NCBI GenBank assembly: GCA_963812135.1
Contig: CAWETU010000005.1
Coordinates: 128,001-192,000 of the forward strand
Length of the DNA: 64,000 bases
Source: Vulcanimicrobiota bacterium
Lineage (GTDB): Bacteria > Vulcanimicrobiota > Vulcanimicrobiia > Eremiobacterales > Eremiobacteraceae
Direction of reading: 5' to 3'
A program made the translations under genes and the position numbers. Shown piece by piece: positions 9,670 to 45,169 of this stretch (the stretch's first letter is position 1; every line of letters starts with the position of its first letter). The notes under the pieces were generated by a model. It did not search any database and was not told where the DNA came from. It saw only the letters and a list, made by a program, of their open reading frames with translations.

Positions 9670-12136
9670 TCATGCCGGAACGGGCGCCGCGGGCGGAGCC
9701 GCAGGCGCCTTCTTCAAGCGCAGCGTCGCGCCGCTCGACGCGTCGAGCGCTCTGAGCACTTTCTCCGCCGTGATCGGCGTGGAGTGCACGCGCGCCTTGA
9801 TCGCGTCCGCGACCGCGTTCGCGATCGCCGGGATGACCGGGTTGAGCGGACCTTGCCCCGCTTCCTTGGCGCCGAACGGGCCCTCGCGATCGTCGGTCTC
9901 GATGATGATGGCTTCGATGGGCGGCGTGTCGAGGCTGGTCAGCGTCTTGTAGTCGAGCAGATTCGGGATCTTGTGCTCGCCGGCGCGGAACGGCCACTCT
10001 TCCATCAGCGCCTCGCCCAAGCCCATGTAGACGCCGCCTTCGATCTGGCCTTCGACGGAGTCAGCGTTGATGCAGCGGCCGACATCGTGGGCGAGCGTGA
10101 TCTTCTCCACCTTGATCTCGCCCGTTTCGAGGTCGATGTCGACCTCGGCGACCGCAACGCTGTACGAATATGCGGGAGATGGTCCGACGCCCGAGCCCTT
10201 GTATCCAGCCGCAAGCTTGGGCGCCCAATAGGAGCCCACGCCGACGATCGTGCCGGACTTCGCCTCGGCGAGCTGCGCCGCGTCGATGAAGGTCAGCTCG
10301 CGCGTCGGGTCATCGAGATCGAACACGCGCCGGTTCGCAAAACCGATGCGTTCGCACTTGACCGCAAGTTTTTCCGCCGCCACCTGCGCGATCAGCGCGC
10401 GGACCTTGCCCGCGGCTTCGCGCGCCGCGTTGCCGGCCATGAAAGTCACGCGGCTCGAATACGACCCGAGGTCGACCGGCGTGAGGTCGGTGTCGCCGTA
10501 CACCACGCGGACATCCATCACGTCGACGCCGAGCGTCTCTGCCGTGATGGCCGCCAGCATGTGCGTCGATCCCTGGCCGCAATCACTGGTGCCGGCGAAG
10601 ATCGTGACGCCGCCGCCGCGATCCACTTTGACGATCGCGCCGGATTGCGGCATGTCGTTCCAATAGATGGGTAACCCAGCGCCGCAGAGGTACGCGCTTG
10701 CTGCTATGCCGATGCCCTTGCCGCGCGCCATCTTGCCGCGTTTTTCTTTGTAGTTCGTACGCAGCGTCGCTGCATCGATGCACTCGCGCAATCCACACGA
10801 CGTGACGCGCAGGCCGTTAACCGTGGTCGAGTTCGGATCGACGGCGATGCGTTTGCGATACTCGGCCGCGTCGATGCCCAACGCGTCCGCGATCTTGTCG
10901 AGCTGATTCTCCAGCGCGAAGCGCGGCTGCGTCGTGCCATGCCCGCGCTTGGGTCCGCACGGCGGCTTATTCGTGAACACGCGGCAACCGTCGAACTTGT
11001 ACGCCGGCACTTTGTAGGTCACGGTCGTGAGCGCGCCCGTGTAGTACGTCGTCGCGACGCCATACGACCCGTACGCGCCGCCATCGAGCCACGACTGCAG
11101 GTGGATCGCGGTGATCGTACCGTCGTTTTTGACGCCGGTCTTCAATTTGAAGCGCACCGGATGGCGGCCGCGGTGTGCGTAGAACACCTCTTGGCGCGTG
11201 AGCGCGATCTTGACCGGCCGTCCGGTGCGGCGAGCGAGGAACGCCGCGGCCAGTTCGTGCGCGAACGGCTCGGTCTTGCCGCCGAAGCCCGCCGCCCACC
11301 GGCGGCGCGATGATGCGTACCTGGCTGCCGGGCATGCCCAGCACTGCGCACGCGATGCGATGCAGATAGTGCGGCGTCTGCGTCGAGCACCAGATCGTGA
11401 GCTTGCCGTCGCCGCCGTACTGCGCCACCACGGCGTGCTGCTCGATCGGCGCGTGCGTGTTGCCCTCGAAGAAATACTCATCTTCAAAGATGCGATCCGC
11501 TTGCGCGAAGCCCGCATCGACCTCGCCGAACTCCAAGTGCGCTTCCTTGTGCACGTTGTTCGTGCGCCGTGGATTCTCGTGGATCTGCGGCAGGTCGTCG
11601 CGCAGCGCTTGGTCGATCGTGCCGATCGTCGGTAGCGGTTCGTACTCGACGTCGATCAGCTCGACCGCCTCTTCTGCCGTCAGCTCGTCGTCGGCCACGA
11701 TGCAGGCGATGGGATCGCCGACGTAGCGGACTTTGTCGAGCGCCATGACCATCTCGTCGGGGCTAGACGGCAAGATGCCGTAGCGCACGAGGATGTCGTT
11801 GCCGGTCGCGACCGCGACGACGCCGGGCAATTCAAGCGCGCGCGTGGCGTCGATGCGTTTGAGGCGCGCGTGCGGTACGGTGCTGCGCAGCATCTTGCCG
11901 TAGAGCATGTTCGGCAAGAAGATGTCATCCGCGAATTTGTCTTCCCCGGTGACGCGCGTGAAGCTGTCGGTCTTGGCCATCGCCTTGCCGACGACGTGAA
12001 AGCCTTCGGGTTTATCAGCCGGTGTCTGCGGCGCTCTAGAGACGACCGACGCTGCGTCGGATACAGGTGTGGGCGGCCGCGCGTCCCCGTCGGGATTTGT
12101 GGCCGTGGAGACCTTCGGAAGCTCTTCTTCTTTCAT
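9670..12136 (-). pseudogene. Xanthine-dehydrogenase-family molybdopterin subunit (HcrA-like) with a 1-nt-insertion frameshift (real or sequencing error)
   Basis: The N-half (to IIAPPVGGG) and C-half (FGGKTEPF...) lie in different frames; extra base in the C-run at 11288-11290; KRGHG, GQGS, YSSRVT and GQIEGG motifs present. Confidence 0.85.
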
Positions 12137-12615
12137 CTCGACCGCGTGGAAGCGAGTTGGATCGCTTCGATGATCTTCGTGTAGCCGGTGCAACGGCAGA
12201 GATTTCCGGCGATCGCCTCGCGGATGTCTTGCTCGGTCAGATCGTGACGCTGCTCGACAAGCGCGGCGCCGGTCATGAGAAAACCAGGCGTGCAGTAGCC
12301 GCATTGCGCCGCACCGCACTCGGCAAACGCCTGCTGGATCGGATGCAGCCGGCCGTCCTTGGCCAGGCCCTCGACCGTGCGGATCGCGTGGTCTTCCATC
12401 TCAACGGCAAGCACGAGACACGAGAGCACCGGCCGTTCGTCCACCAACACGCAGCATGCGCCGCAGTGGCCCATCTCGCAGCCGTGTTTGGTGCCGGTCA
12501 ACCCGAGATCTTCACGCAACACTTCGAGCAGCGTCTTATTCGGGTGGAAGGCGACTTCTATTGGTGCGCCGTTGACGGTGAGCGTGGTCAGCACTTTTGC
12601 TGGTGCGACGGTCAT
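12133..12615 (-). CDS. (2Fe-2S)-binding small subunit (HcrC/CoxS-like)
   Basis: GTKHGCEMGHCGAC, QCGYCTPG, GNLCRCTGY; ATGA overlap with the large-subunit gene. Confidence 0.92.
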   Translation of the reverse strand: MTVAPAKVLTTLTVNGAPIEVAFHPNKTLLEVLREDLGLTGTKHGCEMGHCGACCVLVDERPVLSCLVLAVEMEDHAIRTVEGLAKDGRLHPIQQAFAECGAAQCGYCTPGFLMTGAALVEQRHDLTEQDIREAIAGNLCRCTGYTKIIEAIQLASTRSR

Positions 12616-12952
12616 TGTATCGAGTAGTGCTCCGTTCCGTGGGCCGAACGACCGTTCAGCCTGCAAGCTATACGTTACCTCAAAATCGGGTGCGACGTCA
12701 ACGCGAGAGGCGGTCGAAATGAGGTCTGACCTTCGATCGCGTCGCTCGCATTCGAAGCCCGCACTCAACAAGCAATCGTTCTCGATATCGCGCCGAATGC
12801 GTCGTAAACTCGCTCACGCACCCTTTCTGTGCTGTTTCTGAGGTGCAAAGGGCTTTGCAGAAAAGACGGAGCACATGAGTGTGAGCCATCCATGGCGCCC
12901 GCGCAAATGGCGATCGGCCAACAGGGTGTCGCGACCGTTTTGGAGGACCCGT

Positions 12953-15275: not shown

Positions 15276-16130
15276 ATGCACTTCAAGCGTTTCAGCTGGG
15301 GCGTCGCGTTAGGGCTCCTGCTCATCCACCTAATCGCCGCAGCGGCGTTCCTTCCGATCTTCTTCTCCTGGAGCGGCGTGGCGGTTGCGCTTGTTTTGTG
15401 GTGGATGACCGGTGCCTTCGGCATCGCGTTGTGCTTCCACCGGACGCTCACGCATCGCAGCCTCACCATGCCGCGCTGGCTTGAGTACACATCGGCGTTC
15501 TTCGGCACGCTTTCGCTGCAGGGCGGTCCCATCGAGTGGGTCGCCACACATCGCCTGCATCACGCACACGCTGATGACGAGGGCGACCCGCACGACGCGC
15601 ACCGCGGTTTGATCTGGACGCACATCGATTGGCTGTACAAGCCTAACGATGCACGGCCCAACGTCGACGAGCAGCAACGGTACGCCGCCGACCTGGTCGC
15701 GCAGCCGTACTATCGATTCTTGCAGAAATACCAGCTGCTGCTGCAGATCGCCCTCGGGTTGGCCTTGTTCGCGGTGGGCGGTCTCTCGTGGGTCGTCTGG
15801 GGGATCTTCTTCCGCCTGGTGTTCGTCTACCACATCACGTGGTTCGTCAACAGCGCCGCACACAAGTACGGGTACCGCACGTTCAAGACCGACGACCTCT
15901 CGACGAATTGCTGGTGGGTCGCGATCATGACGTGGGGAGAAGGGTGGCACAACAACCATCACGCATTCCCGTTCTCAGCTCGCCATGGCCTACGCTGGTT
16001 TGAATTCGATCCGACCTGGATACAGATCAGAGTGCTCAAGGCGCTGCGGCTTGTCCGAGACATCAAGCTGCCGACGCCGGCCATGGTGGAACGGCTGACT
16101 GCGCAGCCGAGGCCGCTCCAAAACAGCTAA
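15276..16130 (+). CDS. Delta-9-type fatty acid (acyl-lipid/CoA) desaturase
   Basis: His boxes HRTLTH, HRLHH, GEGWHNNHH. Confidence 0.92.
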   Translation: MHFKRFSWGVALGLLLIHLIAAAAFLPIFFSWSGVAVALVLWWMTGAFGIALCFHRTLTHRSLTMPRWLEYTSAFFGTLSLQGGPIEWVATHRLHHAHADDEGDPHDAHRGLIWTHIDWLYKPNDARPNVDEQQRYAADLVAQPYYRFLQKYQLLLQIALGLALFAVGGLSWVVWGIFFRLVFVYHITWFVNSAAHKYGYRTFKTDDLSTNCWWVAIMTWGEGWHNNHHAFPFSARHGLRWFEFDPTWIQIRVLKALRLVRDIKLPTPAMVERLTAQPRPLQNS

Positions 16131-16162
16131 CACCTCCATCGGCGGCGCGGAGCGTCTGATCC

Positions 16163-17506
16163 GTGGCCCGCAACGATCTACGACCGCAAGCGGCAGCGCC
16201 GCCGCCCGACGCGCTGCCCGGCACTTTCGCTGCACGCGCTATCATGGAACGGCTGTTCGCCGGCGTGCGCGCGCCGATCGCAGTACGCCTTGCCGACGGC
16301 ACCTCACTGCACGCCCCCGCCGGCCCCGCTGACACCACCGTCGTCATCCGCCACCCGGGCGTCATCCGCTCGCTCTTGACGCGCACGTCCGATCTCGCAG
16401 CGGGCGAGTCTGTGGCGCGCGGAGAGATCGATGTCCTCGGTGACGCCGAAGGCGCGTTCGCCGCCTTTGACGAGGTCGCGCGCGTGCGCAGCGCCGCCGA
16501 CTGGGCTTCGATTCTCCCCGCCGCTGCCAGGTTGCCCGCACCGCCGGCGTCTGCGGCGCCGGAGCGCTCGCGCGGACCCGCTCGGCTCCGCGGCCGGCTG
16601 CATTCGCTCGACCGTGACCGCGCCGCGATCGCCTATCATTATGATGTGTCGAACGAGTTCTATGCGTTGTGGCTCGATGGCGACCTGACGTATTCATGCG
16701 CGTATTTCCGCGACGCGTCCGAGACGCTCGATGAGGCGCAACGCAACAAATACGAGCATATCTGCCGCAAGTTGCGTTTGTCGCCGGGGGAACGCCTACT
16801 CGACATCGGCTGCGGCTGGGGCGGCCTCGTGCGCTACGCGGCTCGCGAGCGCGGCGCGATCGCGGTCGGCATCACGCTGAGCCCGAAGCAGGCGGAGTAC
16901 GCGCGCGCGCGTATCGCCGCCGAAGGCGTGGCAGAACGATGCCGCATCGAGCTCGTCGACTACCGCGAGATGGCGCCGCTCGGCGCGTTTGACAAAGCGG
17001 TGAGCGTCGGGATGGTTGAACACGTCGGTGACGCGCTCTTGCCCCTCTACTTCGATGCGGTCGCAAGTACCCTCAAGCCGGGCGGTCTGTTCCTCAATCA
17101 TGGCATCGTGACGCAAAAGCCGAAGCGGCGCGGTCTCGGCGCCCGCTTCTTCCCGCACGGCTCGAAGTTCATCGAGAGATACGTCTTCCCTGACGGCGAG
17201 TTGCCTCACTTGTCGGCGATGAGCGAAGCCGCATTGGAAAGCGGCTTCGAAGTACGCGACGTCGAGAATCTGCGCGAGCATTACGCGTTGACGCTGCGCT
17301 GCTGGGTCGGCGGTCTTGAGTCGAACGAAGCGCGCGCTCGCGAGCTGGTCGGTGATGAGACCTACAACGTCTGGCGTTTCTACATGGCAGGGTCCGCGCA
17401 CGGCTTCGCCACCGGCCGCCAGGGCCTGGTCCAAATGTTGCTCGCCAAACCGATGCTGGACGGACGCGCGGCGGTGCCGCTCACGCGCGCCGACCTGTAC
17501 GCGTAG
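16163..17506 (+). CDS. cfa: Cyclopropane-fatty-acyl-phospholipid synthase family methyltransferase
   Basis: IAYHYDVSNEFY, YSCAYF, LDIGCGWG, SVGMVEHVG, YVFPDG, HYALTL. Confidence 0.88.
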   Translation: MARNDLRPQAAAPPPDALPGTFAARAIMERLFAGVRAPIAVRLADGTSLHAPAGPADTTVVIRHPGVIRSLLTRTSDLAAGESVARGEIDVLGDAEGAFAAFDEVARVRSAADWASILPAAARLPAPPASAAPERSRGPARLRGRLHSLDRDRAAIAYHYDVSNEFYALWLDGDLTYSCAYFRDASETLDEAQRNKYEHICRKLRLSPGERLLDIGCGWGGLVRYAARERGAIAVGITLSPKQAEYARARIAAEGVAERCRIELVDYREMAPLGAFDKAVSVGMVEHVGDALLPLYFDAVASTLKPGGLFLNHGIVTQKPKRRGLGARFFPHGSKFIERYVFPDGELPHLSAMSEAALESGFEVRDVENLREHYALTLRCWVGGLESNEARARELVGDETYNVWRFYMAGSAHGFATGRQGLVQMLLAKPMLDGRAAVPLTRADLYA

Positions 17507-20824: not shown

Positions 20825-21622
20825 CTACGACACCTCTTCCCCGACTGCCGGCTCGGGTTTGGGAGGGATGAACAGCGTCGAGCCGGTGGTGATATCGGCC
20901 TGCTCGAGCGCCGACAGCGTCGTGCGTTCGACGGTCGGAGCGAAGCCCGAGTATTGCGACGCCTCGTAGACGATCGCCGGATGCCCCGCGCCGTAGCGCG
21001 CGCTCAAGTGCTTCGCGAGACGCGCGACGCCTTCTCGGCCGTACTCCATCTTGAAACTTGGATCGCCGGTGACCGCGACTTGCAGCAGCACGAGCGGCGC
21101 CGTCGTGCTGAATGCCCGATCGTTGAGCAGCAGATCGGATGCGTCGAAGATCTGCAGTCCGTCAGTGGCCGGATCGATGTCAAGATCAGCGAGCAGACAG
21201 TCGATCGACGACACTGCCGGCAAGAGCGCGGCGGAATACCCCTCCGCGCGCGCGCGGTCGAGCGCCGTGTGCATCGGATATGCGAAGATCCCAGGATGAC
21301 CGTAGGCGACGACGCACACCTTGGCGCCGCCGCGGACGTATGTCAAGATGCGCGCGACCATCGCTTCGTACGTGTCGATCCGGGGCTTCGCGACGTCGTA
21401 AAGCTCGCCAAGCGATTCGCTGTTCGGATTCAACTCGACGACGCTTCGCGCCGCAACAGCGTCGCCCACCAAGAACAGCACTTTGTCGGCGCACTCTATG
21501 TGCCAGCGCGCAGCAGGCGTGAGATCGCGTCCGACGTCGATGCCTGCGCCGACGATCGTAAGATCCGGCAGAGGCGGCGTGGACCAGGCTATTAGCTCGT
21601 CCCGCCGGTGCCCGGTGGCCAC
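20825..21622 (-). CDS. Borosin-type peptide alpha-N-methyltransferase (OphMA/SonM family, TP_methylase fold); start uncertain
   Basis: LTIVGAGI, ADKVLFLVGD, LY..AKPRIDTYEAM, YGHPGIF, LPAVSSIDCLLADLDIDP, LLQV; no fused core peptide. Confidence 0.88.
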   Translation of the reverse strand: MATGHRRDELIAWSTPPLPDLTIVGAGIDVGRDLTPAARWHIECADKVLFLVGDAVAARSVVELNPNSESLGELYDVAKPRIDTYEAMVARILTYVRGGAKVCVVAYGHPGIFAYPMHTALDRARAEGYSAALLPAVSSIDCLLADLDIDPATDGLQIFDASDLLLNDRAFSTTAPLVLLQVAVTGDPSFKMEYGREGVARLAKHLSARYGAGHPAIVYEASQYSGFAPTVERTTLSALEQADITTGSTLFIPPKPEPAVGEEVS

Positions 21623-21852
21623 GGCCGCGGCGGACCGTACGTGAACGGATGCATTTCGGGTGTCTTAGATTCGTGATGTTCCTTTTTGACGTGCTCTTCG
21701 ATATCTTTGACCGATCCCCACAGGAAGGCTCTGATCTGCAATTCGCTGAGCCCGTACCCCTCGAACAGTTCGAGCACTTCTCTATAGAGGCGCTCCGAGA
21801 ACTCTTTGTGTTTGGTCTTGTTGAGAAAGTCGGTGAAAGGTGTTTTGCTCAC
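21592..21852 (-). CDS. Putative split-borosin precursor peptide (86 aa; binding domain plus C-terminal core)
   Basis: AAAGGAG RBS (21860-21866) then GTG at 21852; FTDFL...YGLSELQIRAFLWG helical pattern resembles SonA; tail HHESKTPEMHPFTYGPPRPWPPGTGGTS. Confidence 0.8.
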   Translation of the reverse strand: MSKTPFTDFLNKTKHKEFSERLYREVLELFEGYGLSELQIRAFLWGSVKDIEEHVKKEHHESKTPEMHPFTYGPPRPWPPGTGGTS

Positions 21853-21991
21853 CGGAGAACTCCTTTGCCGAAAAAGCAAAATCGACGACGCTTGAGAGCT
21901 CTGCGTTGGATTAGGTGCCCGGCGTTCCCCGATTTTTTGAAATGCCCTCCAAGGGCAAGAGTGGCCTTTCCGCTCAGCGAAACCGCGCCGG

Positions 21992-24025
21992 GTGAAGACG
22001 TCGGATTTCGTTATTGTCCTCGTCGCGACGCTTGTGTTGACTGCGCATCCGCGAGCCGCAACAAGCGCGGGCGCTCCGCTCGACCTTTCCACCCTGCGCA
22101 CCTACGTGGAAATTCCAAGCCTCGCGATCTCGCCGGGCGGCAGCCGCGTCGCCGCCGTCATCCAGCGTCAGAATTTCGCGACGAACAAATATGACGAGCG
22201 CATCGAGGTCATCGATTGCGTGACCCGCTCGCGCGTGACCGTAACGCCGACGAGCCACGCCATGTCCTCGCCGGCGTGGTCCCCCGACGGCACCTCTATC
22301 GCGTACATCGCCGATGCGACGGACGGCACCTCGCAAGTATTCGCGGTCCCCGCCGGCGGCGGTACGCCGCGCCGGCTGACGCACGCTCCGCGCGGCGTTG
22401 ACTCGTTCGCGTGGCGGCCGGACGGCATGGCGATCGCATTCGTCACAACCGACGCAGCGCCGAACGCGAAAGCGATCGCATCCGGCCTCGACGCATTCGA
22501 AGCCGGCGATCAAGATTACATGAGCAGCGCGAAGCCCACACCCGCGCATCTGTGGCTGCAAACCATCGCCGGGGGCTCACCGAAGCGGCTTACGGCCGGG
22601 CAGCACAGCCTGCCGATCGGTGAGCTGATCTTTCCGTTGCCAGAGGTCGCTCCGATGCCGTTCTTCGCCTGGGCACCGGACGGCAAGTCGATCGTCTTCG
22701 CGCGCATGGACAACGCATATAACTCTGACGCGGTCGGCACTGTGACGATGGTGCTCGACGTGGCGACGGGCGCCATGCGCAAGCTCACGAGCCACACGCG
22801 GCTCGAAGCAGGCGGCCTCTATTCGCCCGACGGCATGCGCATCGCGTACGCGTACGCACGCGGCGACGATCCGATGGCACAAGTGGTCATGATGATCGCG
22901 CCTGCGAGCGGCGGCGACGGCATCGCCGCCACGCAATCGCTGGACGTCGACGCGCTCGGCGCTCGCTGGTTGAGCGGCCACCGGTTGCTGGTCAACGCGT
23001 TCCAAGGTGCGCGCTCGCGGCTATTCATCGCGGGCGAGCATGGCGACACGTCGCGCGTCGACACGGGGGCGGTCGATCCTGTGCCCGGCACACTCGACGC
23101 GACGGGGTCGGGCCACATCGCGTTCGTCGGTTCGGAACCAGAGCGCGCGACCGAAGTCTACACGATGTCGTCGCCGTTCTCGGCGCCCGTCCGCCTCACC
23201 GACTACAACGCGCCGATCAATGCCCGCGCGCGCAGCAAAGTGCAAGCCATCACGTGGAAAGGCCCGAACGGTTTCTCAGAGAGCGGCGCGCTTTTCTACC
23301 CGCCCGATTTCGATTCGGCCAAGAAGTACCCGCTTGTGCTGCAGATCCACGGCGGTCCGACCGAGTCGACGATCGCCAGCTGGCGTGACACCGACTGGCC
23401 CGGCCTGCCGCAGTACATCGCCGCGCACGGCTATCTCGTGTTCTCGCCCAACTATCGCGGGAGCGACGGCCAAGGCAACGCTTATCAGATCGCGATCTTC
23501 AACGACGCAGGCGACGGCCCCGGACGCGACGTCATGGCGGGCATCGACGCAGTGAAGCGCCTCGGCAATGTGGACGAGACGCGCATGGCGGTGACCGGTT
23601 GGTCGTATGGCGGTTATATGACCGAGTGGATGATCACGCATTACGATGTCTGGAAAGCGGCGATGGCAGGCGCTGCACCCGCCGACGCGTTTGTCGACTA
23701 CTCGACGTCGGACTACAATGTGCTCGGGCGGCTGTATTTCGGCGGCGCGCCGTACGACTCGCCGGCGTTACTGCAAGCGTATCGCGATCAATCGCCGCTG
23801 TCGTACGTCGGCCAGGTCAAGGCGGCGACGCTGCTCATGCACGACTCGGGCGACGTGCGCGTGCCGGTCGTGCATTCGTACGAGTTCTATCAGGGACTCA
23901 AGGCACATCACGTCACGGCATCCTTTGTGGTCTATCCGGTCAGCGGGCATTACCCGGCAGACCCACTGCGCTCGGAGGATATTTACCGACGATGGGTCGC
24001 CTGGCTCGATCGATACTTGAAGTGA
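21992..24025 (+). CDS. Secreted S9-family peptidase (acylaminoacyl/dipeptidyl aminopeptidase-like) with PD40 beta-propeller
   Basis: Signal peptide; WSPDG repeats; IHGGP, PNYRGS, GWSYGG, GDVRV, GH catalytic triad. Confidence 0.92.
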   Translation: MKTSDFVIVLVATLVLTAHPRAATSAGAPLDLSTLRTYVEIPSLAISPGGSRVAAVIQRQNFATNKYDERIEVIDCVTRSRVTVTPTSHAMSSPAWSPDGTSIAYIADATDGTSQVFAVPAGGGTPRRLTHAPRGVDSFAWRPDGMAIAFVTTDAAPNAKAIASGLDAFEAGDQDYMSSAKPTPAHLWLQTIAGGSPKRLTAGQHSLPIGELIFPLPEVAPMPFFAWAPDGKSIVFARMDNAYNSDAVGTVTMVLDVATGAMRKLTSHTRLEAGGLYSPDGMRIAYAYARGDDPMAQVVMMIAPASGGDGIAATQSLDVDALGARWLSGHRLLVNAFQGARSRLFIAGEHGDTSRVDTGAVDPVPGTLDATGSGHIAFVGSEPERATEVYTMSSPFSAPVRLTDYNAPINARARSKVQAITWKGPNGFSESGALFYPPDFDSAKKYPLVLQIHGGPTESTIASWRDTDWPGLPQYIAAHGYLVFSPNYRGSDGQGNAYQIAIFNDAGDGPGRDVMAGIDAVKRLGNVDETRMAVTGWSYGGYMTEWMITHYDVWKAAMAGAAPADAFVDYSTSDYNVLGRLYFGGAPYDSPALLQAYRDQSPLSYVGQVKAATLLMHDSGDVRVPVVHSYEFYQGLKAHHVTASFVVYPVSGHYPADPLRSEDIYRRWVAWLDRYLK

Positions 24026-42094: not shown

Positions 42095-45000
42095 ATGCCC
42101 GCATGTTCGCTCGAGACGCTCGGCACGTTTGCCTTACGAGTGGACGGCCGGCTCGCACCGGCTCCGTCGACCCAAAAAGCGCGCGCGTTGCTCGTTTATC
42201 TGGTGATGCATCGAGGCAGCGACGTCGCGCGCGAGCGGCTCATGGAACTGCTCTGGCCCGACGCCGACCCCGAGCGCGGCCGCGAGAGCTTACGCACCGC
42301 GCTACATTCGATACGGCGCAGTTTGCGCGGCGCCGACGCCGACGCCGACGCGCTGCTGACCGCTAACAAATCCGTGGTGCGTTGGACGCCCGAGACGAAG
42401 CTCGACATCGATCGCTTCGCCGAGCTGGCCGACCACAGTGATCCGGCGTCGCTTTCGGAGGCCCTCGCCGTATATCGCGGTGATTTTCTTGAAGGCGATT
42501 ACGAGAATTGGACGGTTATCGAGCGCGAGCGGCTCTCTGCGCGGTACGAGCGACTCCTTGCCCGTGCGCTCAAGTCGGCGAACGATCCGGAGATCGCGCG
42601 CCGCCTGATCGAGCGAAATCCTTACGAAGAGGAACCATACATCGCGCTGATCGATGCCGAGCTGGCAGCAGGTCGCCGTGCTGTCGCGCAACGCCTGATC
42701 GCGCAATGTCGCGGCGCGCTGGCCGAACTCGGCGAACGCCCCTCGGCGGAGTTTGAGCGCCGGTATGCCGATCTCGAGCGCGCGGTCGCCAAACCAGCCG
42801 ACTCGTTCCGCCTCCCATTCGTGGGCCGCGAGCATGAGTTGGCAGACATCCAACGGCATCTCGACGACGCGGCTCAAGCTCGCGGATCGCTCACCATCGT
42901 CAGCGGCGAACCGGGGATCGGCAAGTCGACGCTGCTTGCGCACGCGGTCGAGTCTGCCATCCGCCGCGGTGTGCGAGTTATCAGCGTCCAGTGCCTGACC
43001 GGCGATCCTCGACCGTTCGGTCCATGGCAAGGCGTCTTCGAAGGCTTGACGAGCCGAAGCTTGCCGGAGTTCGTCAAGCTGGCCGGACGCGATGTCGCCA
43101 GCGAGGTCGCGGATTCGATCGTCGGCGCATTGGACAAGCCTGCAATGCTTGTCATCGACGACGTGCAATATGCGCGCGACGCGGCGCTCGAAGTCACGAT
43201 CCACGTCATGCGACTCGCGAGCGCGACACACGCAGTCGTTGCTGCGACCCGGCCGGAAGGCATCGCGCGTCTCAATGCGGCGCTCGGCGAATTGCGCCGC
43301 ACCGAGTTGGCGGTCGGCGCACTGACCCGGGACGATCTCGTAGCGGGCTTGCAGCGCCTCGCCATCGCCGACGACGACCCACTCCTCGATGCGCTGTATG
43401 GCCGCACAGATGGCAACCCGCTGTACGTGATCAGCTTTCTCGACGAACTCGTGAAGTCGGGAACGCTGCGACGGCACGGTCATCGTTGGGAGATCGACCT
43501 CAAGCGGCCGCTCGAATTGCAACTGCCCAAGTCGCTCACTCGCTCAATCGAAAACCGGTTGCGTTCCCGTGGCGACGTCGCTGCGGGAGTCGCCTGTGCG
43601 CTCGCCCTCGATGCGGACGCCGACATCGACGACGTGGGCAACGCGCTCGGACTCGACGAGACTTCCCGCCTTGATGCGCTTGACGATTTGCTCGCGCTCG
43701 GAGTCGTCGTCGAGCAATCTTCAGGACCGCAGCTGAGCTTCATACACGACGTCGTGCGCGACGTGGCCGCCCTGCTCCTGAGCGCGGCTCGACGAACCCG
43801 TGTGCATCGGGCGTTCGCAGACAGTCTCGCGCGATCGCCGGCACGCAACGCCGCTCTACGGCAAGCCCGTCATCTCGAGGCCGCAGGAGACTTTATGGGG
43901 GCAGCAGGCCTTTATAAGGACGCTGCGATCGAGGCGATGGAGTTGCGAGCAGTTTCCGACGCTAGTGCGCGATGCGACGATGGGTTGCGAATGCTCGCCA
44001 AGGCGGACCGCAGCGAGCCGGTCGAACTCGTGGCAGCCGAGCTGCACCGCGTCAAGGCCGAGAATCTCGTCCGTAACGGCCGTTACAAAGATGCGCTCGC
44101 CCCGGTCGTCGAGTCGGTGCGCATGGCGCGCGCTGCGGGCGATGAACGGGCGCTCATCAAGTCGCTCAATCTACGCTCGACGATCAACATGGAGCTGCCG
44201 CAAATCGATGACATGCTGCGCGATGCGGACGAGGTCGCCACGATCGCCGATCGGGTCGGCGATCACGCTTCCGCGGTCAATGCTGCCGTCAAGCGTTCGT
44301 GGGCTTTCGTGATGCTCGAAGACGGCGATCAGGCGATAGCTCAAGGCGAGAAAGCGCTTGCGTTGGCGGACCGCATCGGCAGCGATCGCGATCGAATGGT
44401 CGCCGCCGATAATCTGATCCGAGCCGCTTCGCTCTGGTGGCATTTCAAAACGGCTGCAGCGGCTTCGACGGTTGCCATCCAGATCGGGCCGCGCGTCGGC
44501 TGGAACGCGGAGGTCGCGAACCTGAGCGCCGCGGCCCGGCTGTGGCTGCTCGTCGGCCGGCTTGAAGTTGCTCGCGGGATGCTCGAGCAGGCGCGCAGTC
44601 ACCCGCAGAGCAGGCTCCGATCCGGTGACGTGCTGCTCTCGATGCCGTTGCACGAGCTACGGGTCGATTTTGTTCTCGCGACGGTGCTGACCGAGCTCGG
44701 ACGCCTCGATGAAGCCCTCGAGGTGGCGGAGCGCTGTGCGAGGCACCCCCTGACCGCCAGCGAGCCGGACATCGACAACACGCTACGCATGGCGCTTCTC
44801 GACATTCTGTGGCGGCGCAACCAGGCCGCCGACCGCAAACGACTACCCGATCTGCTGCGAATCCTTACCGACGTTCGCACGACGACGGGCGTGCTCTTCG
44901 GGGGCAACAGCCCGGAGATCATCCGTGGTATCGTGTCGGTGCGTCTCGGTGTTGCGCAAGCGCCAGAGCTTCTGTCAAAGGCGATCGACCACTCCGAGTC

Positions 45001-45169
45001 TGCCTCTGCCCGCAAGCCCTTTGATTGCGTTCGTGGTTTTGCCAAGCTGGCGGCAGCGGCAGGTGAGGCCGGACTACCCGAGCTTCACGCCCGAAGTGAA
45101 CGTCTCCGTGAGATCTATGCCCGCCGCCACGCGAGCGCCGTTGCAGAACTAGATAAGGTGCTCGCGTGA
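42095..45169 (+). CDS. SARP/BTAD plus AAA-ATPase transcriptional regulator
   Basis: KARALLVYL, RERLMELLWP, YRGDFL, PYEE, FVGR, GEPGIGKS, IDD, GNPLY. Confidence 0.9.
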   Translation: MPACSLETLGTFALRVDGRLAPAPSTQKARALLVYLVMHRGSDVARERLMELLWPDADPERGRESLRTALHSIRRSLRGADADADALLTANKSVVRWTPETKLDIDRFAELADHSDPASLSEALAVYRGDFLEGDYENWTVIERERLSARYERLLARALKSANDPEIARRLIERNPYEEEPYIALIDAELAAGRRAVAQRLIAQCRGALAELGERPSAEFERRYADLERAVAKPADSFRLPFVGREHELADIQRHLDDAAQARGSLTIVSGEPGIGKSTLLAHAVESAIRRGVRVISVQCLTGDPRPFGPWQGVFEGLTSRSLPEFVKLAGRDVASEVADSIVGALDKPAMLVIDDVQYARDAALEVTIHVMRLASATHAVVAATRPEGIARLNAALGELRRTELAVGALTRDDLVAGLQRLAIADDDPLLDALYGRTDGNPLYVISFLDELVKSGTLRRHGHRWEIDLKRPLELQLPKSLTRSIENRLRSRGDVAAGVACALALDADADIDDVGNALGLDETSRLDALDDLLALGVVVEQSSGPQLSFIHDVVRDVAALLLSAARRTRVHRAFADSLARSPARNAALRQARHLEAAGDFMGAAGLYKDAAIEAMELRAVSDASARCDDGLRMLAKADRSEPVELVAAELHRVKAENLVRNGRYKDALAPVVESVRMARAAGDERALIKSLNLRSTINMELPQIDDMLRDADEVATIADRVGDHASAVNAAVKRSWAFVMLEDGDQAIAQGEKALALADRIGSDRDRMVAADNLIRAASLWWHFKTAAAASTVAIQIGPRVGWNAEVANLSAAARLWLLVGRLEVARGMLEQARSHPQSRLRSGDVLLSMPLHELRVDFVLATVLTELGRLDEALEVAERCARHPLTASEPDIDNTLRMALLDILWRRNQAADRKRLPDLLRILTDVRTTTGVLFGGNSPEIIRGIVSVRLGVAQAPELLSKAIDHSESASARKPFDCVRGFAKLAAAAGEAGLPELHARSERLREIYARRHASAVAELDKVLA

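Follow-up and report, generated by a model that had tools for sequence, protein, structure and literature searches.

A putative split-borosin precursor and its methyltransferase lie beside a STAND-type LuxR regulator in Eremiobacteraceae

The closest described relative of the locus treated here is SonA/SonM of Shewanella oneidensis (PDB 7LTC), which, in the available text of PMC8429565 and PMC10549244, pairs a separate 70–90 aa precursor carrying a borosin-binding domain (BBD) with a standalone methyltransferase, has no protease in its cluster and adjoins a signalling gene (there encoding a GGDEF protein). A similar arrangement is found in a 64,000-nucleotide stretch of the genome of a Vulcanimicrobiota bacterium of the family Eremiobacteraceae (positions 128,001 to 192,000 of contig CAWETU010000005.1, "the window" below), where the gene for a putative borosin precursor is followed by genes for a standalone alpha-N-methyltransferase and a regulator of the STAND (signal transduction ATPase with numerous domains) type. 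The locus differs from SonA/SonM in its Pro-rich YGPPRP..WP core, a leader predicted to have four helices and no Asn-Pro kink, a Leu in place of enzyme residue W166, its cytoplasmic STAND-TPR-LuxR partner and a non-canonical start of the enzyme gene. In a second comparable system, SamA1/SamM1/SamP of Shewanella amazonensis, an aromatic residue two before Pro (Phe52 of Phe52-Phe53-Pro54) is methylated once according to the accessible part of bioRxiv 10.1101/2024.01.09.574750, and Y72-G73-P74 of the present precursor has the same spacing; the SamA1 methyl group is described there as a recognition mark that a pepsin-like protease reads, and the tail set free in that system is acidic. No such protease is linked here.

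Type IV, the split type, is the commonest borosin type (746 of 947 sequences in bioRxiv 2021.12.24.474128), and as the same paper already records GGDEF domains for 56% of clusters, along with many signalling domains in general, a signalling link for borosins is no new idea. More than 1,600 bacterial split-borosin clusters have been predicted, and bioRxiv 2021.12.24.474128 and PMC10549244 state their biological role as open; the latter reports no antibiotic activity for Shewanellamide A. Our literature search found no STAND-LuxR borosin partner, no Pro-rich type IV core and no borosin of this lineage (the loci may be in the tables of the RODEO borosin study), nor any backbone-modified ribosomal peptide as inducer of a STAND-LuxR regulator, and the accessible parts of PMC11395268 and PMC9259500 add nothing on the first three. 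For borosins in Eremiobacterota, the search returned a single paper, whose subject is an unrelated FkbM enzyme. Taken alone, the precursor makes only a modest addition to this most common type of borosin. The point that bears most on function is the regulator travelling with the pair, which an earlier sequence-only reading of the window, concerned with the precursor, overlooked. We propose, with a probability of roughly one half, that the backbone-methylated peptide would be the input of this dedicated STAND regulator. The features concerned are collected in Table 1.

Table 1. Features of the locus (positions in the window).
Feature	Position	Strand	Basis
Putative precursor of a type IV split borosin (86 aa, starting with GTG)	21592..21852	-	homologues and substitution pattern
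Shine-Dalgarno sequence AAAGGAG	21860..21866	-	kept in relatives
Precursor residues 1–62, BBD (LigA/NHLP-clan) leader, four predicted helices	21667..21852	-	profile match to SonA; model
Precursor residues 63–86, unstructured Pro-rich tail with motif [FY][TS]YGPPRP(xx)WP (about 21645–21616)	21595..21666	-	alignment, model
Predicted methylation sites F70/T71/Y72	21645–21637	-	rules from other enzymes
Standalone borosin alpha-N-methyltransferase, ~250 aa, start uncertain	20825..21592	-	SonM, OphMA, PF00590
STAND-type regulator, 936 aa: AAA_16 ATPase, helical/TPR sensor region, C-terminal LuxR helix-turn-helix	17985..20795	-	Pfam
Perfect 6-bp inverted repeat, 3-nt spacer, candidate operator only	21943..21957	.	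single copy in genome
Divergent S9 peptidase, signal-peptide-like N-terminus	21992..24025	+	PF00326

The precursor gene and its leader

The precursor frame opens at the GTG at 21852, 7 nt after AAAGGAG, and closes with a TAA ending at 21592 (compared genomes and loci carry G and L labels below, G000 being the genome of the window). These coordinates, the start and its spacing, the 86-aa translation and the 169-aa extension of the frame in the open reading frame (ORF) track were all reproduced as first described, as was the lower GC content of the gene, which is 54.4% compared with 63.9% for the window, a value as low being found in 1.3% of 261-nt windows. All 4 close relatives compared, with L025, G010 and G012 among them, share the AAAGGAG and GTG, and G011 and G008 have the Shine-Dalgarno sequence in the form AAGGAG. 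In G010 and G012 the frame is blocked 10 codons upstream of the start, so the 169-aa extension is not conserved and hence non-coding, and the 169-aa ORF was ruled out as the gene. Set against L025, residues 2–58 show 12 synonymous codon changes and 4 non-synonymous ones; the counts are 2 and 6 for residues 59–68 (the most variable part) and 1 and 0 for residues 69–77. The homologues and this substitution pattern indicate that the 86-aa ORF is a real gene. A 199-nt contig of metatranscriptome X12 matches 21548–21746 with one difference, spanning the 3′ half of the precursor gene and its junction with the methyltransferase gene; DNA carry-over is possible, and it is a weak sign of transcription. 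In the comparison of sequencing runs (16 of 20 runs, with small shares, were left out) contigs of runs X2 and X3 differ at M67 and H68; stretches left uncovered by the reads were given no weight. Close homologues bear the source names Candidatus Eremiobacteraceae or Eremiobacteraeota.

As a single sequence the precursor matched no family in Pfam or NCBIfam and nothing in the PDB, and the ESM Atlas returned only unnamed viral clusters (best 0.82), a lead at most. A profile of 23 precursor sequences, whose members were picked by similarity and not by neighbourhood, was more informative. Homologues came from 4 proteins, 5 of the 32 genomes of the order, and 13 representatives minus two, P0007 and P0018, which were dropped as long repeat proteins. 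Against the PDB the seven best rows of this profile are all SonA chains (E 7e-4 to 9e-4; the next row is at 0.13), with SonA residues 5–52 aligned ungapped to profile positions 7–54 (E 7e-4), and a wider profile, extended with enzyme-adjacent precursors from other genera, reaches SonA with E 6e-7. The TAL-repeat rows that the wider profile also returned were rejected as summed weak repeat matches with no single stretch that passes, and a match in G203 (E 4e-4) was rejected as a precursor because it is an unrelated 370-aa frame with no methyltransferase. Homology of the leader to the SonA BBD is established by these profile alignments; the parallel with SonA drawn in the sequence-only reading is borne out by the homologues together and not by the single sequence. 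When the enzyme was sought in 401 sampled genomes of the phylum it was found in 68, and 9 of 10 profile matches in the 401 lie beside methyltransferases, as that reading had anticipated. The idea of a BBD leader with a C-terminal core as substrate of the adjoining methyltransferase is supported as well, and the 86-aa protein is very probably a borosin precursor.

The AlphaFold model of the precursor (mean predicted local distance difference test score, pLDDT, 80.6, and 87–93 across residues 1–60) places helices at residues 5–12, 16–31, 37–45 and 48–62, followed by a coil tail. The SonA leader is a five-helix bundle in the available description (PMC8429565); the Asn-Pro kink that parts its helices 2 and 3 has no counterpart in the precursor, for which a single long helix is predicted. 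Structure searches with the monomer model gave weak scores for SonA (Foldseek E 5.6, target template modelling score 0.46, root-mean-square deviation (rmsd) 7.5; VIA Z 2.5, rmsd 6.5, 44 aligned residues), so that of the suggested check of the leader against the SonA fold, the sequence half succeeded and the structural half yielded these weak scores only. Predictions of a complex of two enzyme chains, one precursor and S-adenosylhomocysteine scored 0.32, 0.00 and 0.01 and were counted neither way; any pass would lean heavily on the solved SonM-SonA structures. Of the 22 wider-family precursors, three match the model of the IniB N-terminus (E 3e-6 at best) and four match NHLP-clan models, in each case below curated membership.

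The core tail and the methyltransferase

The earlier reading called the core Pro/His-rich; it is Pro-rich but not His-rich: residues 67–86 contain 6 Pro and 1 His, and the His cluster of the precursor belongs to the variable linker and predicted helix 4. Across 15 family members the tails contain 11–29% Pro, and Trp is present in 13 of them. The motif of Table 1 is found in all five close sequence types, and the expectation of a hypervariable tail fails on the conservation of YGPPRP..WP among close relatives.

In SonM and OphMA variants neither Pro nor the residue preceding it is methylated (PMC11751858 section 2.1), Trp is a poor site and shifts the position methylated, charged residues are poor sites (PMC11751858), Pro at i+2 is tolerated, and an aromatic residue at i−1 sets the first site (PMC11751858 sections 2.1 and 2.3). 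Pro directly follows H68, G73, R76 and W78 in the precursor, so these four residues are unlikely to be methylated, and the remaining candidates are M67, F70, T71, Y72 and the Gly/Thr end. Only 10 of the 20 C-terminal residues neither are Pro nor precede it. On balance we favour one or two methyl groups within F70–Y72, by rules that are borrowed from other enzymes and may fail here. The most likely sites would be Y72, which is two before Pro as in SamA1, and F70, by the i/i+2 spacing. A longer set of sites (M/H/F/T/Y/G/R/W) had been put forward, and it is not supported, given the positions of H68, G73, R76 and W78 and the poor performance of Trp and charged residues; a heavily methylated, rigid aromatic product is unsupported, given that residues before Pro are unmethylated in the SonM/OphMA variants.

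The methyltransferase matches SonM (E 1.3e-42), OphMA (E 1.4e-42) and PF00590. Its Y65, R71, Y75 and Y97 align with SonM Y58, R67, Y71 and Y93, catalytic residues whose roles are described in the accessible part of PMC8429565, and across 44 homologues these residues and the YGHP and DCL.AD motifs are intact. It has the sequence traits of a type IV split-borosin enzyme (standalone, no fused BBD, active-site residues present), and in close relatives the gene is full length and open. The candidate starts are an ATA at 21592, which overlaps the precursor stop, and a CTG at 21571, 21 nt on; the GTG at 21622 of the ORF track lies inside the precursor tail and has no ribosome-binding site. An in-frame TAA in G012 leaves only the ATA or the CTG ahead of the first conserved strand. 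The CTG of G000, G012 and L025 is a TTG in G010, and an ATA or ATC overlaps the precursor stop in G000, L025 and G010, an overlap of the kind that an ATG forms in coupled genes. Six codons in the interval from ATA to CTG are variable, five of them synonymously (read by eye). Coupled, low-level initiation of the enzyme is likely. Gene callers picked several different starts for its close homologues. A predicted hairpin at the junction (window 21555–21625, minus strand; L025 5230–5300; L012 1490–1560; L011 2235–2310) would pair Gly codons of the precursor with Pro-Pro codons of the enzyme; all four sequences fold, but with z-scores of only −0.3 to −2.5, and the hairpin has no Rfam match.

The regulator, its proposed peptide input and rival explanations

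The regulator gene is the third of the cassette and begins 29 nt after the methyltransferase gene. Its product has a Walker A/B P-loop ATPase, a helical repeat sensor and a LuxR helix-turn-helix (HTH), which are the domains of MalT and the large ATP-binding LuxR regulators (Pfam AAA_16 4e-27, TPR_12 8e-5, GerE 2e-19). A single-sequence model of it is poor (pLDDT 50.7, too poor for a fold search), with a run of helical hairpins at residues 415–856. A second STAND regulator (Trans_reg_C, AAA_16, TPR) is encoded at window 42095–45169 on the plus strand, and the genome has 16 AAA_16 matches.

Fifteen of the 32 genomes of the order have the methyltransferase, and in all 15 (13 of 13 without the unpublished G015 and G025) the best match of the regulator lies downstream of it on the same strand, at 33–151 nt in 14 genomes and at 743 nt in G013, whose precursor gene is placed between enzyme and regulator. 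All 12 published family relatives have a BBD ORF next to the enzyme, and in other genera its tail is very different; G000 has one methyltransferase gene and one BBD gene. The family loci viewed contain no conserved protease, exporter/transporter or second tailoring enzyme (unlinked transporters were not searched for), and no borosin genes were found near five more distant homologues of the regulator (G022, G004, G020, G030 and the unpublished G031). The G013 precursor (L037) has three GGHVQ repeats and a PWPPGGG motif resembling the G000 tail, and G009 (L036 6094–8966) has two BBD precursors, separated by about 2 kb, whose tails differ.

Divergence is unequal along the cassette. In G010 and G012, which have the same core as G000, regulator residues 1–800 are 71–73% identical to those of G000, and in G011, G008, G009 and G013, which have other cores, they are 46–48% identical and the methyltransferase 44–52%, whereas the regulator HTH keeps 85–88% and the flanking genes mostly 64–78% (coxG 52–57%). 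In other genera the regulator body is 43–47% and the HTH 58–65% identical to G000. Conservation of the regulator is lowest in residues 481–600, within the helical sensor region (mean 35–36%). The sensor body and the enzyme thus vary with the core, and the HTH output is stable within the genus.

A near-constant sensor neighbour of the precursor-enzyme pair suggests that the methylated peptide is a signal and not an antibiotic-like product. We propose that the precursor, the alpha-N-methyltransferase and the STAND-LuxR regulator form a three-gene cassette in which the leader would dock on the enzyme, as SonM, OphMA and SamM rules suggest, and the enzyme would add one or two backbone N-methyls in F70-T71-Y72 and not across the Pro-rich part. 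The methylated tail, either freed by a housekeeping protease or left on its leader, would, to judge from the genomic associations, bind the helical/TPR sensor of the regulator, and binding would switch both the ATP-dependent oligomerisation of the regulator and its attachment to DNA, in the way that maltotriose acts on MalT. The core would vary jointly with enzyme and sensor to give specificity types, with the DNA-binding output fixed within the genus.

The best NCBIfam match of the regulator is the TOMM-system kinase/cyclase fusion TIGR03903 (E 2.7e-46, far below the cut-off), a STAND-containing family named for its link to a system for peptides that are made on ribosomes and modified after translation (RiPPs); it differs by its kinase/cyclase output and azole chemistry, and to our knowledge its function is not established. 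In agr of staphylococci, peptide, modifier and receptor are a co-encoded polymorphic set with a conserved output domain. ComQXPA of Bacillus subtilis, in the available part of PMC4408185, likewise has a co-encoded peptide, modifier and receptor that are polymorphic as a set (pherotypes). At the present locus co-location (15 of 15) and unequal divergence are seen, but approximately unbiased (AU) tests do not show allele exchange; the locus differs from these systems in having a cytoplasmic STAND candidate receptor, not a membrane kinase, and no linked exporter. MalT of E. coli and IniR of mycobacteria have the same order of ATPase, helical sensor and LuxR HTH, and in the accessible text of PMC5760070 their known or proposed inducers are sugars, unlike the peptide proposed here. 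The match of the regulator to NCBIfam IniR is weak (E 2e-9, below cut-off); small LigA/NHLP-clan domains beside STAND-LuxR regulators may recur beyond borosins.

Beyond the order, all 48 loci of a sister family and 3 of the 5 of a distant family were examined. Within ~3.5 kb of the sister-family enzyme there is a STAND ATPase alone in 17 of 48 loci, a PDZ-membrane-GAF protein alone in 25, both in 2 and neither in 4, so that 44 of 48 have such a partner (STAND ATPase 19, PDZ-membrane-GAF 27); the same queries match 109 of 2000 random 10-kb windows of G000. The STAND partners carry LuxR, cyclase or XRE-HTH outputs, which suggests that several different sensors were recruited. The PDZ, multi-membrane and GAF protein, of about 580 aa (L045 7798–9672, L046 4428–6260, L044 8422–10224), is a candidate receptor that mostly lies within 100 nt of the enzyme, and no output domain was detected in it. 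In one genome, G022 (L047 2318–7436), a regulator 40% identical to that of G000 is followed by a 90-aa basic ORF, YcaO and TfuA (the only TfuA found in the 32 genomes). The set, in reverse orientation, sits between the same neighbours as the borosin cassette of G023 and G024. This single case is a candidate thioamide RiPP cassette. More tentatively than for the single locus, the split borosins of this bacterial class may be, instead of metabolites made as final products, coded ligands (N-methylated, and thioamidated in one genome) for NLR-like STAND-TPR or PDZ-membrane-GAF receptors, in pherotype-like groups.

Several observations weigh against a peptide signal read by the regulator. The methyltransferase has a Leu at the position of the SonM "bottom lock" W166 and no clear canonical start, and the modelled four-helix leader superposes poorly on SonA. 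TPR regions usually diverge faster than HTH domains, the compared genomes are kin, and no more than four core types could be set side by side within the genus. AU tests for mosaicism are not significant and do not reject a single origin of the genus (regulator body p 0.094, HTH p 0.46, enzyme likewise), so that allele swapping is not demonstrated; the enzyme tree also keeps the genus together, with weak support. In the sister family 6 of the 44 matches are self-matches of the queries, the control is from G000 only, and kin are not independent; 4 of its 48 loci and all 3 of the distant family have no such neighbour. Finally, co-location is equally expected of a cluster-situated activator.

That last possibility, the main rival, is an ordinary type IV borosin cluster whose regulator only activates the operon on some other signal and whose product acts elsewhere. 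We consider it unlikely, although LuxR regulators of the large ATP-binding kind often govern the biosynthetic genes next to them. It would fit the unique inverted repeat upstream of the precursor and the presence of the same regulator clade beside the thioamide cassette, as expected of a general RiPP activator, and SonA gives a released 16-mer without a clustered protease. It leaves unexplained why the sensor body, and not the HTH, diverges with the core and the enzyme, and why cyclase-STAND and PDZ-membrane-GAF proteins with no detected DNA-binding domain are partners in the sister family.

We regard as improbable a second alternative, in which the small protein is a little-methylated or unmethylated regulatory partner that uses its leader and Pro-rich motif to bind the enzyme or regulator, with an enzyme gene that is in decay or expressed weakly. 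The few residues of the tail available for methylation, the altered helix pattern of the leader, an enzyme gene lacking ATG, GTG or TTG with a ribosome-binding site in G000 and limited to ATA or CTG in G012, and the IniB (3/22) and NHLP-clan (4/22) matches, which imply that the fold is also used outside borosins, would all suit it. Decay is at odds with catalytic residues and motifs that stay intact across the 44 homologues, with the full-length, open enzyme genes of close relatives, and with the TTG of G010 at the CTG position.

Quite improbable is the multiply N-methylated rigid aromatic product of the sequence-only reading, possibly freed or cyclised by the S9 peptidase as OphP does for omphalotin. 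A Pro-rich core does lie beside a gene of the S9 (prolyl oligopeptidase) family, which 6 of 7 genomes of the genus have at most 4 kb from the methyltransferase, and the tails are Pro-rich with Trp in 13 of 15 family members, but residues before Pro are not methylated in the SonM/OphMA variants. Among the family loci viewed outside the genus, only the unpublished G025 has the peptidase as close; its homologues occur in 31 of the 32 genomes of the order, it keeps 70–73% identity where the cassette drops to about 50%, its N-terminus is signal-peptide-like, and in G012 (L006 6016–7975) a frameshift near residue 338, which may be real or an assembly error, breaks it in two beside an intact precursor. 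Its wide occurrence, an identity that follows that of the flanks and the broken copy of G012 make a role dedicated to the cassette unlikely, and its candidacy as a dedicated maturase was set aside.

Very improbable is a type 0 borosin, with leader, core and enzyme fused in one chain, that frameshifting or read-through would produce where the two genes overlap. In G000, G010 and L025 the reading frame of the enzyme does run back without a stop into the tail of the precursor, and it has no clean start, but stop codons separate precursor and enzyme, their frame relation (−1 in those three) differs in G012, where the enzyme is in frame behind a TAA, and G011 and G008 have GTG/TTG enzyme starts that overlap the last codons of the precursor.

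Neighbouring genes and significance

The inverted repeat of Table 1 lies ~90–105 nt upstream of the precursor start, and its half-sites are found at similar distances in four other congener types, which is not significant; a shared operator motif was rejected, since 42 of 300 real genomic windows (4 of 300 for shuffles) do as well. Elsewhere in the window, the large subunit of a molybdenum hydroxylase (9670–12771, minus strand) is in two frames (10967–12319 and 9670–11517) compared with one 821-aa ORF in G008, reflecting either a frameshift or an assembly error. Fatty-acid desaturase and cyclopropane-synthase-like genes (15276–17506, plus strand) are in the same place in G010, G012 and G013 and were not found in the G011, G008 and G009 loci.

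The locus offers a compact test of the peptide as regulator input, with one precursor, one enzyme, one soluble candidate receptor and four natural core types in the genus. Activity of the enzyme on a 20-residue core containing 6 Pro would widen the known substrate range of backbone N-methyltransferases. If the peptide is the signal, borosins would gain a function, and STAND regulators an inducer that is a ribosomal peptide. If split borosins in this class are coded ligands, they would constitute a new class of peptide signalling in which backbone modification is the recognition mark, and this would be a first role for bacterial type IV borosins.

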